From positions 180,001 through 212,000 of the forward strand of contig NZ_CP065581.1 in the NCBI RefSeq assembly GCF_018389705.1: a stretch of DNA of 32,000 nucleotides, written 5' to 3'. Under the pieces are notes generated by a model, which was not told where the DNA came from, ran no database searches, and saw only the letters and a list, made by a program, of their open reading frames with translations. Below are positions 16,711-22,890 of this stretch, piece after piece (the first letter of the stretch is position 1; each line of letters begins with the position of its first letter). Both the position numbers and the translations under genes were made by a program. Origin of the DNA: Mycoplasma mycoides subsp. capri (GTDB taxonomy: Bacteria > Bacillota_I > Bacilli_A > Mycoplasmatales > Mycoplasmataceae).

Positions 16711-19700
16711 ATGAAAAAACTATTGGCCTTACTTGCAGTTACAAGTATTCTAACATCATCTGGATTGACTTATGTAATACATGAAAACGTTACTAGAAAA
16801 TCTAACAGAGTTGATGAAAGAAAGACTTTTGAACAAGAATTAAAAGATCTTTCTATAAAATTAGATAATTACAAAAAAAACTTATATTCAACTGATAAGA
16901 AATTTAAAAACTTAACAGCTGAAGATATTTTAAATAACGGAACTATTAGATCATTAGAAAAGGATTTAGCTTATATTAATAAACAAATTGAAGCTAATAA
17001 TAATGAAATTACAGCCAAAAATGATCAAATTAAAAAATTAACTGAAGATATTAAAACAGCACAAGACACAATCAAAAAATTAGAAAAAGAAAATCCAACT
17101 AATAAAACTAAGATTGAAGAATTAAAAAATTCTAAAAAAGAATGAGAAACAAAAGCATTTAATAGTAAAAAAGAACTAGAAAAAAAACAAAAAGAAGTTA
17201 GTGAATTAAAATCTCAACTAGAAAATGTTCAAGCTCAAAAACTTTCAATTGAAAAAACAATTAAGAATATTTCAAAAAACCTTAATTCATTAGATAAAAA
17301 ATCAAAAGAAGAACAAGATCAAATTCAAAAACTTCAAAAAGATATTGATAGTTTATCTAAAATAATTAAGAAAAAAGAAGAAGAACTTGAACCTGTTATA
17401 AAAGTAAAAGATGAATTTAAAAGAGAAATTTTAAGACTATCTAGTGAAAAAAGTGCTATTGATTCACAATTAAATAAATTAAATGCAAATCAACAAAAAT
17501 CTACTGAACTTAAAAATAAAGTTGAAGCTTTAAAAAAACAAAACAAAGAGTTGGAAAGCCAAATTAATAAACTTTCAGAAAGTAAAAAAAATTTAGAAGA
17601 AAGACGTCAAATATTAGAACTTGATGCCCAACGTGCTGTTAAACATTTAGTTGATAAAATTAAAGAATTATATGATCTAATTGATAAAACAAATAAAGAA
17701 ATTAATAAATTAAACAAAGAATCAGATGATTTAAAACAAGAACTTATCCAATTGAATACTAATAAAAAGTATTTAGAAATGCAAAAAAATAAAATAACCG
17801 GACCTTTAGAAGAAAAAATTAAAAAAGAAAAAGAATTACAAGAAAAATTAAAAGATATTAAAGATACACTTTCTAAATTAGACCTTAAAAAAGAAAAACT
17901 TAAAAATCTAGAAAAAGAATTAAAAGAAAAAGAAACTGATATTGATAATTTAAACAAAGAAGATAAAAAAATACAAGAAGAAATTAAAAAAATAACTGAA
18001 GAAGTATCTAAAGAACAAAAGACTTTACTTTCTAAAAAATCTAAAGTAGATGAACTAAAAAAACAAATTGATAAAAAAGATGCAGAACTTGAACAAATTA
18101 AAAAGGATATTTCTTCAAAAGCTAATGAAATAGAAGGATTAAATTCTCAAATCAAAAATCTTGAAAAAAATAAAACAGAAAAAGAATCAAGATTAGCTGA
18201 GCTTGAAAGAGAACACAAAGAAAGTGATAAACAATTAGAAGCTGAAGTAACCAATTTAAATAAAGCTATAGTTTCAGCTAATAATGAAAAACAAGATAAA
18301 GAAAACCAAAAAACTGTTTTTGAATCTAAATTAGAAAAAATTAAAAAAGAAGTTGCGGTTGAAAAAGAAAAGAAAAATAAATTAGAAATTGAAATCGAAA
18401 AAGAAAATAGCAATATTAAAGAAAAAGAAAAATTAATATTAGAGCAAGATTCTAAACTAAAAGAAAACAAAAAGCAAAATGAAACTCTTAAGAATGAAAT
18501 TTCTAAAACCAAAGAAGATATTAAAGAAGCTGAAAGAATAGTATCTGAAGCCCCAAGAAGAAAAGATGAGCTTCAAGAAGCAGATGTTACAATACATAAA
18601 GTTTTAGAAGAGCAAAATAGAGAAAAAGAAACTTTAAAAAATAAAATAATTGAAAAAAATAAGCAGATAGATGAGGTAAAAGAAAATATTAGAAAAGTTG
18701 AAAGAGACAAAGAATCTATAGAGAAAAAGAAAATTGCTAGAAATAGAAGAGTACGTTCATTAGAAAAAGAAATTCAATCTGGTAAAAACGAATACAAAAA
18801 AATTTGAGAAGATTTCTACAACAAAAATAGAAATACAATTTTAAATTACGACAAAGAAGAATATGAAATTGGTAATGAATATTTTGAATTACTAAGAAAA
18901 TATAACGAAAATAATGATTTAGTATCTGAAATAACTCAACGAACTGGTGATATTGGATTAGAAATTGCAGTTTATACAAAAGAAAAAACTAAATTAGAAG
19001 AAAAGATAGCTTCTATTTCTAAAAAAATTAGTGAAGTTAAAATTTTAAAAAATACTTTAGATCAAGAAGCTTTAAGTATAGATAAAGAAAATAAAGATCA
19101 ATTAGAACTTAAAAATGTATTAGAAAAACAAAAAGAAGAGTTAATTGCCAAGATAAATAAAGATCAAGTTGAACGTTCAGAAAAAAGTAAATTATTAGAA
19201 AGAAAAAGACGTGCATTAATAGAAGTTGATAAATCTGCAGAATCTATGCTAAGACAAATTGCTAGTGTTGAACAAGAAGTAGCAAGAGCTAACGATGAAG
19301 TAGAAAAAGCTAAACGTGCATCTCTTAACTCTGATGAACAACTAAAAAAAGCAGAACAAATAAATACTGAGCTTGAAAGTAAATTAAAACTAGAAAAAGA
19401 TAAAAAAGCTTCAAATCAAAAAATAAAAGAAGAATATGAAAGAGAAAAACTTCAACTAGAAAAAGAATTAGATGAAAAAACCCAACAAAAAAATGCAATT
19501 AAATCTAAATTAGAAGAAGCGCAGGCTGAAAACAAAAAGATTTTAGAATCTATTACTAAACAAAATGAAGTTTTTGAAGCTCTTCAAAAACAATATAACG
19601 AACTAAAAGAAGAATTTACTGGATTTAATATATTTAAAGAAGAAGATATCAAAGAATTTATTACTAAAATAAATAGTTTTAAAACCAATTTAGATAACGA

Positions 19701-19797
19701 ATACATTAATAAAGCCAAAGATTTTGCAGATCAACTAGCTAAATATAGAGATAAGTTATATGAAATCAAAAAAGAAATAGAAAAATTAAATGCTTAA
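16711..19797 (+). CDS. Membrane-anchored K/E-rich coiled-coil protein A, 1028 aa
   Basis: AAGGAT RBS before ATG 16711. N-terminus MKKLLALLAVTSILTSSGLTYV is a signal-anchor with no Cys lipobox. The remainder is heptad-like and K/E/L/N/I-rich. I translated the gaps 17143-17551 and 18805-19246 by hand: only two TGA (Trp) codons and no TAA/TAG. Confidence 0.85.
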
Positions 19798-19827
19798 TTT
19801 AATAAACAATAATAAGGAGAAAATATT

Positions 19828-22800
19828 ATGAAAAAGTTATTAGCTGTATTAATTGGACTAACTCTTTTTACAACATCAGGTGTATCATATGTAGCTTATG
19901 ATAATATAACTTCTATTTCTGCAAATCAACACAATAATAGAAAGAATCTGTTATCTGAAATTGATAAAATTGAAAAAGATATTAAAGATAAAGAATCTAA
20001 TAGTGATAAACTAAGGCTAGGTAAATTAGATAAAGAAATAAGTATTAAGAATTTTCAAGCTTCTATTGACAAAATTAAAAAGCAAATTGCTGAAAAGCAA
20101 GATCAAATCAAAATAATTAAAGTTAAAAGAGATAAATTAGCTAAAGATTTTGCTGAAGTTGACAAAAAACTTGCTCCACTAAAAGAACTTGATTCTAAAC
20201 AACAAGATCAAATCAAAAAATTAGAGGATAAAATAACTTCTGATAAAAAATCAATTGAAGAAAATAAAAAAATATTAGTTAAAGAAACTGAAAAACTTAC
20301 CTCATTGACAAAAGAATTAAAAGATTCTGATGCTGTTCTAATAAAAAAACAAAGTGAGTTAAAAACTATACAAGATAAACTAGCTGACTTTGAAAAAATT
20401 GCTAAAGAATTAGAAGAAAAGCAGAATGAATTAAATAATGCAAGAGAAAAATTAGCTACTTTAGGTTTAATTCCAAAAGAGTTAGTAGAAGCTATTAAAC
20501 AAAAAGATTGACTAGAAAAACAAATTAAAAAAAATAAAGAAGATCTTACTTTAAAAAAATTAACTGAAGAAGAAGTTTTAAAGAAAATAGAAGAATTAAG
20601 TAAAGAACTTCCAACATTCGAATCTAACAACAAGAAATTAATAGAAGCTTATAATTCAAAAAAAACTGAAGTAGAAATTCTAAATAAAGAAGTCCAAGAA
20701 TTAGAAAAAGAAACAATAAAATTAAAAGAATTCTATAAAGAAAAAGTTTTTGTTCTAAAAACTCAATATGATAATTTATCAAAACAAAAACAAGATCTGC
20801 ATAACAAAATTTCAGATAGAACTAATTATAAGAACAAAATAGAATCAGAAATTAAGAACCTTAAAGATCAAATAGCTGAAATTGAAAGACAAACTGGTGA
20901 AAAACATCAAAGTATTGATAAGTTAGAAAAAGAATTAAAATCTTTAGCAGGTAAAAAAGAACAAGCTTTAAAAGAAATTAAACAATTAACTACAAAAATA
21001 TCTTCATACCATCAAAAAATAGAAGCTAAAGAAAAAGAAATATCAAAACTTAATAAACAAATAAAAGACAGAAAAGCAAACAAAAAGACTGTTGAGGATG
21101 GATTAAGTAGTCTAAAGAGATCTATTAAAAGAGTTGAAGCTGATATTATCTTAAAAGAATCTATTATTAAAGAATCTGAAGACAGCATTTCTAAATTAGC
21201 TTCAAGTAAAAAACAACTTGAAGAAAATAAAAAACAAATAGAACAAAAAATTGACAATATTAAAAAAGAAATTGAAAATCTTGAACAAAAAATAGCTGAA
21301 AAAATTACTTCAAATGCTAATTCTAAAAAAGAATATGAAGATAAAATAGAAAAATTGAAAGAAACTGTTTCTGAATTTATAAAAGAAAAAGAAAAAATAA
21401 ACAAACAAATTCAAAATATAAATGAAGAAACAAATAAACAAAATGATCTTTTAGAAAAAACTAAAAAAGAAGAAACTAACTTAATAAGTACTAAAGAAGA
21501 ATTAAAGAGATCTCAAGTTGAAAAAGATAGAGAATATGAAGAAATTCTATCTAACTTATCTAAAGAAGAAAATGAGTTAAAAGTTAATACTAGTGAAAAA
21601 GAAAAATACGCTAAAGAATTTGAAAAAGCTAACAGACAAGCTTTAGAAAAACAAAAGGAACTTAGTGTTTTTGAAAACAAAGTAATAGCTTTAGAAAAAG
21701 TAAGAGATCAAAAAAATAAAGAAAATAGCAGTATAAGAAAACAAGTTGATTCATTAACTAGAATGATTGTTTCAAAAAATGAAGATTTAAATAAAGCAAA
21801 AACTGAGAAAGCTGATTTAGAAAAAGAAATTTCTAATATTGATAAGCAAATAGAATCTACTATTCAAAAGATTAATAAAGATAAGCAAGATAATAAAGAT
21901 TTAATTTCTAAATTAACAAAAGAATTAGAAGAAAAACGAAAAGATATCGATAGATTAAAGAAATCTGCAGATGATATCAAAGACAAAACAACACCAATCA
22001 GTGCAATTGTCAATTCAAGAAAACAAGAATTAGACATGTTAATTAAGCAACATAAAGAATTAAAAGAAACTGTCAAAAGCTTAGAAAATAAACTTACAAC
22101 TGAAACTACTAATTTAGAAAAAATGAATTCTGAAATTGAACCAACTATAGTTGAACTAGGTAAGAAGAACGAAGAAGGTAAGGACATATTCTTATCTATT
22201 ACTAAATTACAAAAGCAAGTTGAATATTTATCAACTATTGATGAACAATTAAGTAAAGAAAAAACATCATTAGAAAATAAACTTAGAATTGTTGAAAAAG
22301 AAATATTAGAAAAAAAATTAAGTAAATCATCAGATGATATCAAAAATGCAAGCGCTACTATAGAAGGCTTAAAAAAATTTACAGAGTTTTTAAATAAACA
22401 AACTGAAGAAGAAAAAGAAGAATTAGCTATAGTTGTTAAAAAGAATCAAGAACTACAAAGTGAAATAGAAAAAGAGTCTAAAATAGTTGAATCTGCTGAA
22501 GCTGCTAATAAAAGATTGAAAAGAGAAGACAAAGAGCTAAAGGATAAACTTTCTGAATTAGTTAACAAGAAAAATAAATTAATTGAAAAAATTGATGAAA
22601 TTATTACTTTAAGTGTTGATCTTGAAAATATTTACAGAAATAATTTAAATATTGCAGGTAAAGCTAAAATTGAAATTGAACTAGCAAAAAGAACTCTTCA
22701 AACTTATGTTGAAACTCCAGTTGATCAATACAAGAATGATTTAAACAAAATTAGAAGAACTCATTTTAAAGCTATTGTAAAATGCTACAAAGATATCACA

Positions 22801-22890
22801 GATAATGAACAAAAAGCTGCTAAAAAATTAGAACAATTTAAAACTTCTATCGAAGATTTAAATAAACAAATAGAAGAATTTAACAAATAA
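19828..22890 (+). CDS. Membrane-anchored K/E-rich coiled-coil protein B (paralog of A), 1020 aa
   Basis: AAGGAG RBS. N-terminus MKKLLAVLIGLTLFTTSGVSYV parallels protein A. One in-frame TGA at 20509; I translated 20512-21360 by hand and found no stops. It begins 30 nt after gene A. Confidence 0.85.

Follow-up and report, generated by a model that had tools for sequence, protein, structure and literature searches.

The window analysed here is a stretch of 32,000 nucleotides (nt) from Mycoplasma mycoides subsp. capri (assembly GCF_018389705.1, contig NZ_CP065581.1, positions 180,001 to 212,000), in which two adjacent genes, designated A and B, encode long proteins predicted to be signal-anchored coiled coils. 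The G+C content of the window is ~22%. Translation with the standard bacterial code (table 11) interrupted both long frames at TGA, whereas translation with table 4, in which TGA encodes Trp, gave two open reading frames (ORFs). A first-pass annotation made from the letters of this DNA had described two tandem ORFs with a 30-nt spacer and a ribosome-binding site (RBS) of their own, and this arrangement was borne out under table 4 (Table 1). No terminator was found between A and B. Terminator-like sites were more frequent in the region than expected (4 versus 0.8), and promoter-like matches around the two genes were no commoner than in shuffled sequences and were given no weight. An in-frame ATG upstream of gene A, at 16693, would extend the protein to 1034 amino acids (aa); the start at 16711 (MKKLLALL...) is the one kept in other strains. 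In strain 7730 (L006:272-330, corresponding to window 16693-16720), the A-run after the start codon of A is A7 and not A6, which places the canonical ATG out of frame, and the ORF is maintained from an upstream ATG that lies in the shifted frame (MVIWKK...). This run may be a translational slip site, or it may reflect the mere annotation of a rescued start. Both genes are currently annotated as hypothetical or 'coiled-coil domain-containing' only. Long ORFs (table 4) were also open on the minus strand, at 16971-18797 (608 aa) opposite A and at 20826-22568 (580 aa) opposite B. These Ser/Phe/Leu-rich shadow ORFs are not genes; they arise from the purine richness of the K/E coding strand (AT skew 0.3-0.4).

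Table 1. Features of the A/B locus, in window coordinates.
Feature	Position	Strand	Remarks
RBS of A	16699..16703	+	AAGGA, 7 nt 5' of ATG; read from sequence
Gene A	16711..19797	+	1028 aa, table 4; predicted signal-anchored coiled-coil protein; TGA = Trp at codons 145 and 699
Leader / putative signal-anchor of A	16711..16776	+	MKKLLALLAVTSILTSSGLTYV; no Cys; invariant across all alleles
Conserved membrane-proximal module of A (residues ~23-115)	16777..17055	+	three-way identity across allele types 80-90% versus 10-30% further on
Hypervariable block	17056..22890	+	rest of A, spacer, all of B; proportions of synonymous (pS) and nonsynonymous (pN) differences both ~0.4 versus 0.07 and 0.01 in flanks
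Aromatic-rich 'island' of A (residues 699-755, WEDFYNKNR...)	18805..18975	+	AlphaFold2 helical with two short breaks, pLDDT 45-55
RBS of B	19814..19819	+	AAGGAG; read from sequence; kept in A-B spacers of other alleles
Gene B	19828..22890	+	1020 aa, table 4; predicted signal-anchored coiled-coil protein; TGA = Trp at codon 228
Leader / putative signal-anchor of B	19828..19893	+	MKKLLAVLIGLTLFTTSGVSYV; sole hydrophobic segment
Predicted distal C-terminal helical hairpin of B	22600..22887	+	GKAxIE...YKxDL motif, conserved in fragments P0002, P0003 and P0004
Intrinsic terminator after B	22908..22932	+	AACTCATCTTAGGATGAGTT followed by T-run; hairpin 22908-22927, kept in all strains

The two proteins are similar in composition, with 20% K, 14-16% E, 10% L and 8-9.5% I. 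Trp occurs only at A145, A699 and B228, TGA-encoded in every case, and Cys is absent from A and present once in B (C986), so the two and one Trp residues and the very rare Cys noted in the first-pass annotation agreed with the residue counts, as did the N-termini it quoted, which were exact. Walker A, LPXTG and lipobox motifs were not found in either protein, and the claim that they have no Walker motif, cell-wall sorting signal or enzymatic domain held in motif and domain checks. By Kyte-Doolittle analysis residues 4-22 form the only hydrophobic segment in A and in B, with MKK on its N-terminal side. The two leaders have the motif T[ST]SG[LV][TS]YV-x-[HY]-[ED]-N-[VI]-T in common. Within this juxtamembrane motif an N-x-T sequon stands right after the hydrophobic segment in every allele (HENVT in A, 16777-16800; YDNIT in B, 19894-19917). 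A gene for signal peptidase I was reported to be absent in a member of the same species cluster (PMC5592918) and, by the authors of work on the Vmp proteins of Mycoplasma hominis, from most sequenced mycoplasma genomes (PMC524362). Since there is no lipobox and a cluster member was reported without the signal peptidase I gene, the leader is predicted to stay in place as an anchor, in line with the N-terminal signal-anchor without a lipobox Cys that had been proposed for both proteins.

Everything beyond the leaders is dominated by a heptad pattern. At period 3.50 the hydrophobic pattern had a Fourier power of 6.1 in A and 5.4 in B, compared with 1.1 +/- 0.3 for the maximum of shuffled sequences, so the near-uninterrupted heptads described earlier are far beyond chance. 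The heptad phase was steady across hundreds of residues in both proteins, and a clear a/d register was found in windows covering ~78% of each chain. The core positions were occupied by I (32-35%), L (20-23%) and V (9-10%) at a, and by L (37-41%) and I (15-17%) at d. Ile or Val at a together with Leu at d is the classical pattern for parallel two-stranded coiled coils, and from this core composition and the established rules we infer that the A and B chains pair in that manner. Long tandem repeats were not found in either gene, which had only short arrays, some with two to three units at a 21-nt period and a few with other short periods. The relative heptad phase of A and B was about constant across ~800 residues; this match was considered as evidence for a heterodimer and dropped, as any two regular rods would show the same.

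Predicted structures agreed with a rod-like architecture. The AlphaFold2 model of A 700-1028 was fully helical with four short breaks and a mean predicted local distance difference test score (pLDDT) of 73, and that of B 780-1020 consisted of a 181-residue helix, a Thr-Pro break (963-964) and a return helix of 55 residues, at a pLDDT of ~90. The first-pass annotation had placed short non-coiled islands in A and at both C-termini. This was right in part, as breaks and low confidence were seen in the island of A, but the island was predicted to be helical and the C-terminus of B to be a helical hairpin. The island of A also retained the 3.5-residue periodicity, and WEDFY and a few other residues were conserved across allele types. 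In these models the islands are kinked helical regions rather than separate folds, and because the models are helical throughout, no globular domain is predicted. No specific structural match was obtained: Foldseek against the PDB gave nothing below E = 0.1, and a sequence search of the PDB gave nothing specific.

The locus was then compared among 11 genomes, the window included. This set is small and non-random, as it was drawn via an exact match to one neighbouring protein. The names of four M. mycoides subsp. capri loci were taken from PMC8562856, and that of HN-A (L005) was obtained via accession CP093215, cited in PMC9607973. The locus was syntenic in M. mycoides subsp. capri, Mycoplasma leachii and a M. 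mycoides subsp. mycoides-like genome. While neighbouring proteins were 94-99% identical among the M. mycoides subsp. capri strains, A and B fell into at least three deep allele types with 35-65% identity between them. Relative to the window, A was 96.7% identical in 7730, 65.1% in HN-A and 39.5% in 95010, and B was 95.0%, 64.4% and 35.4% identical, respectively; the A and B types co-segregated. A further type was found in LS483508, whose A shared 64% identity with the 95010 type and 37% with that of the window. This divergence is orthologous and not noise, because the rods of the window and of 95010 scored 285 bits for A against A and 337 bits for B against B, versus 25 bits for A against B of the other type.

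Synonymous (dS) and nonsynonymous (dN) divergence and their ratio, omega, were estimated by the method of Nei and Gojobori. In the flanking genes dS was 0.05-0.11 and omega 0.06-0.26, and inside one allele type of A or B the values were 0.055-0.18 and 0.25-0.35. Across allele types dS rose to 0.36-0.74 and dN to 0.21-0.62, with omega 0.4-1.05. Because the dS between types is far above that of the flanks, the allele types are old lineages, much older than the remaining chromosome, rather than products of recent fast evolution. The block of divergence extends from codon ~60-120 of A through the B stop codon, and DNA identity to M. leachii dropped from 97-99% to 71-81% exactly within B. In codons 1-60 of A, pS was 0.08, and since this value is flank-like, a recombination boundary was placed within the 5' end of A, around codons 60-120. 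In B conservation was limited to about the first 30 residues. The types also cross taxon boundaries in the M. mycoides cluster, being common to or exchanged among taxa. The M. leachii remnant shared 97.2% DNA identity with the HN-A allele of B, and that of the M. mycoides subsp. mycoides-like genome was 88% identical to the 95010 allele.

Despite this divergence the architecture was retained. Between the most divergent types the hydrophobic a/d residues remained hydrophobic at 83-94%, and identity was 48-52% at a/d versus 25-28% at b, c, e, f and g, in alignments that are themselves steered by hydrophobic matches. Allele lengths stayed within 1013-1031 aa (1015-1020 aa for the B alleles of other strains). 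Only 3-6 internal indels separated the types, mostly of 3, 4, 7 or 11 residues, which are the indel sizes that fit coiled-coil periodicity. These patterns show core, phase, length and leader to be under purifying selection, with an exposed surface that can change almost at will.

The genes themselves were often broken or missing. Both were intact in four genomes, namely the window, 95010 (L004; A 1024 aa, B 1016 aa), HN-A (A 1027 aa, B 1015 aa) and 7730 (A 1031 aa, B 1020 aa). One gene was broken in three: in G1313.94 (L007) A carried an A8 to A7 frameshift and B was intact; in G1283.94 (L009) A was intact and B was broken by a CAA to TAA change at codon 180; in LS483508 (L012) A was intact (1013 aa) and B was broken twice. 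Only a remnant of B was left in the other four, the M. mycoides subsp. mycoides-like genome (L008, CP068548; 1.21 Mb), with ~70 codons of B, and the three M. leachii genomes (L001-L003), with the 3' half of B; A was lost in all four. At least five independent inactivation events are required. The proposal in the first-pass annotation of a membrane-tethered cytoskeletal element, or any core structural role, is disfavoured because the genes are hypervariable and often lost: 7 of the 11 genomes had broken or lost at least one gene, which is the common pseudogenisation or absence that the annotation itself had named as counting against its proposal. An essential cytoskeletal role is thereby excluded.

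G1313.94 and G1283.94, siblings isolated from Barbary sheep (Germany, 1994), differed at two positions only over 7 kb. One, at L007 ~727 (codon ~140 of A), kills A and the other, at L009 3942 (codon 180 of B), kills B. The two isolates are thus natural single-gene knock-outs and ready material on the mutual dependence of A and B. Programmed phase variation was also considered, given the A8 to A7 lesion, and no switch is claimed: the A-tracts are short and their positions are not conserved across alleles.

The paralogy of A and B, assumed in the first-pass annotation, received divided support. The full-length proteins gave a colinear alignment with 27% identity (E = 1e-8) and the leaders were 46% identical across 39 aa, but the rods without leaders scored 43.9 bits, inside the range of shuffles that preserved the heptad classes (24.1 +/- 5.6, maximum 45.4). 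A tandem duplication would be the simplest reading; it draws on the leader, the equal length and the common architecture and not on the rods.

Relatives were sought in family models and protein collections. The NCBIfam model TIGR04523 ('helix-rich protein', Mplasa_alph_rch) represents an uncharacterised Mycoplasma family without known function. It gave 95.1 bits for A and 128.1 bits for B, and 130.4 and 110.9 bits for the alleles of 95010. The curated cut-off is 270 bits and the model has 745 positions compared with the ~1020 aa here; by that cut-off neither A nor B is a member. The alignments of both proteins begin at model position 1 and include the leader, without which the score dropped by 26 bits (A) and 42 bits (B), and the reversed sequences gave 32 bits and <20 bits. 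The likeness therefore appears to go beyond coiled-coil composition and to include the signal peptide. Members of this family carry a signal peptide, consist nearly throughout of helix, are periodic and D/E/N/Q/K-rich, and are frequently encoded in tandem. A and B match this description, being helical, periodic, K/E/N/Q/D-rich and encoded by tandem genes. A and B thus resemble TIGR04523 and yet fall outside it by the family's own criterion, and membership would in any case explain nothing because the family has no known function.

Models of SMC proteins scored 80-100 bits with A and B (cut-off 567), with nominal E-values down to 1e-29. An SMC, Rad50, JetC or LmuB identity was rejected, as the reversed proteins still gave 79-86 bits on SMC and there was neither a Walker A motif nor an ATPase head; the matches are compositional because the scores persist on reversed sequences. 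Matches in PADLOC were at or below 40 bits and confined to arm regions, those in PHROGs were weak tape-measure or coiled-coil noise, and Pfam gave only sub-threshold coiled-coil noise for both proteins. No EzrA domain was matched in Pfam or NCBIfam, and DivIVA and SMC head domains were likewise absent. A tblastn search of phage records gave no match to A or B. Neither A and B nor their 95010 alleles had an exact match in the protein collection. Full-length B in a word-indexed protein search returned no relatives, the result being swamped by 8000 low-complexity candidates. Protein searches used TGA-free fragments, such as B 229-1020. An exhaustive HMMER search with this fragment against 1.84 billion representative proteins found four true relatives only, all of them fragments, from M. 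leachii PG50 (MSB_A0903 and MSB_A0904), M. feriruminatoris and M. mycoides. Two pattern scans of species-representative genomes and one scan of metagenomes gave no match. The genome scans are not evidence of absence, because they also missed the known positive M. leachii PG50, in which NSAGKAKIE fits the pattern; that collection seems to lack the regions sought or to have them masked. Searches of the literature yielded no publication on the A/B gene pair.

We favour, at a probability of about 60%, the explanation that A and B are signal-anchored, parallel dimeric coiled-coil surface fibrils, up to ~140-150 nm long if unbroken, antigenically diverse and often discarded. The two genes would form an operon for strain-variable fibrillar surface antigens. 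The Sec pathway would insert each protein with MKK inside and the remainder outside, and the leader, uncleaved without signal peptidase I, would serve as the membrane anchor. The chains would pair as A-A, B-B or A-B in parallel two-stranded coils, with the rods standing up to ~140-150 nm off the wall-less cell. The outward orientation, which the first-pass annotation had preferred, is predicted because MKK precedes the hydrophobic segment, because there is no lipobox and the cluster appears to lack signal peptidase I, and because the allele types are deep within a single subspecies and loss is recurrent. Deep types together with recurrent loss are, we infer, the signature of an exposed, dispensable and immunodominant structure, and the reverse of the pattern expected from a core cytoskeletal element. 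Host antibody, or another external selective agent, would maintain the diversity, and gene loss would be an escape route. By analogy with the Lmp and Vmp proteins of M. hominis, the physical role may be that of a long spacer or shield, an anti-agglutination factor, an adhesion-modulating coat or a decoy antigen.

Several points weigh against this explanation. An omega near 1 between types fits relaxed constraint on exposed positions equally as well as positive selection, and both dS and the alignment between types are near saturation. Frequent loss could simply reflect a low fitness value. Charge changes little across the hydrophobic segment, from ~+3 in front of it to +1 to +2 over the 15 residues that follow. 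Neither A nor B shows a ligand-binding domain. The model as a whole is built on sequence and predicted structure, with surface expression and topology derived from them.

A more specific form of the fibril model is that A and B form a heterodimer in register, a 'picket fence' of ~140-150 nm in which length and not sequence is selected while the exposed faces are held diverse in the form of ancient, trans-species allele types. Such a molecular ruler would set the stand-off between the wall-less membrane and host cells, antibody or complement and, if true, would represent a type of surface layer not recognised before in wall-less bacteria; we regard it as unlikely. It also seems improbable that the rods are outside but selected by phages or mating partners, blocking adsorption, acting in surface exclusion during transfer of integrative and conjugative elements (ICEs) or of the chromosome, or preventing self-aggregation. 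On this reading the allele types would be the outcome of an arms race with such phages or partners. The surroundings of the pair are indeed of an accessory and mobile type, with a Fic gene upstream, an orphan helix-turn-helix (HTH) ORF of insertion sequence (IS) type downstream and, in other strains, AbiEii/DUF6088 and IS elements close by. In M. hominis, agglutination correlates with the loss of Lmp repeats (PMC524362), and the Mem protein of a M. fermentans prophage is also an N-terminally anchored coiled-coil surface protein (PMC7466169). However, no phage or ICE genes adjoin the pair, and no phage of the M. mycoides cluster was tied to the locus in the material examined. A direct phage link was rejected, as PHROGs and PADLOC gave only weak coiled-coil noise and the tblastn search of phage records was empty.

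An inverted topology, with A and B as a cytoplasmic membrane-tethered scaffold like EzrA or other cytoskeletal elements, would account for the single N-terminal anchor and the long helical domain, which is the EzrA layout too, and for weak sub-threshold matches to filament and crescentin rod models. We consider it quite improbable: MKK stands before the hydrophobic segment, unlike in N-out anchors; identity falls to 35-40% within one subspecies, versus 94-99% for neighbouring proteins; the deleted or broken genes include those of the M. mycoides subsp. mycoides-like genome and of all three M. leachii genomes; and the proteins have none of the EzrA, DivIVA or SMC head domains, the SMC matches being compositional. 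The position of the anchor could also be questioned from the other side, with the leader cleaved and the rods secreted or loosely held. The hydrophobic core spans only ~16-19 residues and closes with small residues, SSG or TSG, in a motif conserved between A and B that is like a signal peptidase I site, but the reported absence of that gene in a cluster member (PMC5592918) and in most sequenced mycoplasma genomes (PMC524362) leaves this option little chance. That the genes are merely decaying low-complexity ORFs, open by chance or composition, is very improbable. Frequent inactivation and an omega of ~1 between types would fit decay, and the long antisense shadow ORFs show how resistant to stop codons such a composition is. 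Against it, 1013-1031 codons have stayed open in several alleles despite a dS of 0.4-0.7 and 22% G+C, omega inside a type is 0.25-0.35, the heptad core, length, leader and RBS are conserved, and the indels are mostly compatible with a coiled coil.

The neighbours of the pair are sugar-utilisation genes and genes for Fic, a hydrolase and a nucleoside phosphorylase. The Fic/DOC-family gene (15769-16341, minus strand) lies between the MupG gene and A; it was kept in the M. mycoides subsp. mycoides-like genome, which has no intact A or B, whereas only 61 aa of it are left in M. leachii, in which window 15562-21420 is covered by the deletion. The sugar-utilisation cluster (7148-15482) encodes phosphotransferase system (PTS) EIIBC, a glycoside hydrolase family 38 (GH38) alpha-mannosidase, PTS EIIA, a ROK kinase, a GH1 6-phospho-beta-glucosidase and a MupG-like 6-phospho-N-acetylmuramidase. 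The cluster is 97-99% identical to that of M. leachii and is notable for a wall-less organism. Downstream of B, an orphan ORF of 154 aa (23928-24392) contains a transposase-type HTH only (HTH_28, HTH_23, HTH_Tnp_1), with no catalytic domain, and was found at the same place in every related genome examined. Further on, an unannotated gene of 326 aa without a Pfam match (25296-26276, minus strand) was the most variable neighbour in M. mycoides subsp. capri, at 93-97% identity; its 5' part and the adjoining intergenic sequence (25905-26503) were 88-90% identical to M. leachii, compared with 96-99% around. Near the start of the window a DUF285 (BspA-like repeat) protein is encoded at 310-1239, followed by an N6/N4 DNA methylase (1264-2019) and an ORF of 225 aa without a family match (2019-2696). 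The last two may be a restriction-modification pair.

M. mycoides subsp. capri is a livestock (goat) pathogen and the parent species of the JCVI synthetic cells. If A and B are exposed fibrils with serotype-like types, they would be candidate strain-typing markers and candidate immunodominant or decoy antigens for vaccine design, and they may explain strain differences in aggregation, adhesion and serum sensitivity. The locus is also a clean natural experiment in coiled-coil evolution, with core, phase and length kept and all else replaced.

Among known systems, long heptad-rich helices are common to A and B and to EzrA and the arms of SMC, Rad50, JetC and LmuB. Unlike these proteins, A and B have a leader, have no ATPase heads, and are hypervariable and dispensable; for EzrA in particular there was no domain match, MKK precedes the anchor and the genes are often deleted. 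Streptococcal M proteins are held to the cell wall by a C-terminal LPXTG anchor, measure ~50-60 nm, differ in length because of repeats and possess defined regions that bind host ligands. Like M and M-like proteins, A and B would be fibrillar and probably dimeric parallel coiled coils with many serotype-like types in one species, and the anchor-proximal part is conserved while the distal part is hypervariable (80-90% for A residues 1-115 versus 10-30%). Unlike them, A and B are predicted to be N-terminally anchored in a wall-less membrane, have no LPXTG, are about three times longer and of fixed length, and have no sequence relationship; the likeness to M proteins is one of evolutionary logic only. 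Mem of the M. fermentans prophage phiMFV1 is, as summarised in its source, a coiled-coil protein with an N-terminal transmembrane anchor, surface-located, variably expressed and dispensable (PMC7466169). It is prophage-encoded, whereas A and B are chromosomal, have no adjacent phage genes and show no similarity to phage records.

The closest design is that of the Vmp and Lmp proteins of M. hominis (Boesen et al. 2004, PMC524362). These carry a secretory signal at the N-terminus but no lipoprotein site, their organism has no signal peptidase I, and coiled coil covers almost all of their 1400-2200 aa. Gene types within the one species diverge to 33-55% identity, half of the isolates have the gene deleted, conserved genes flank the locus, itself a hot spot of recombination, the lmp genes are paired, and the agglutination that correlates with Lmp repeat loss is spontaneous (PMC524362). 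A and B likewise have a signal without a lipobox, a near full-length coiled coil, divergent types and presence/absence variation, with the pair intact in 4 of 11 genomes. They differ from Lmp, which varies in size via repeats of ~0.5 kb, in having no long repeats and a nearly fixed length, from Vmp, which has a non-coiled C-terminal region, in the predicted helical hairpin at the end of B, and from both in being two equal-length paralogues in one operon, in the mycoides cluster and not in the hominis group. No specific motif was common to the leaders of A/B and Vmp/Lmp, in a comparison made only on an alignment damaged by optical character recognition. The first-pass annotation had presented the pair as a candidate undescribed system, which is too strong given this shared design (PMC524362) and the sub-cut-off match to TIGR04523. 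The claim is better narrowed to A and B as the probable equivalent, in the mycoides cluster, of variable coiled-coil surface proteins of the Vmp/Lmp class. What is added here is how deep the allele types are and that species share them, how strictly length and phase are conserved, and a list of independent losses.

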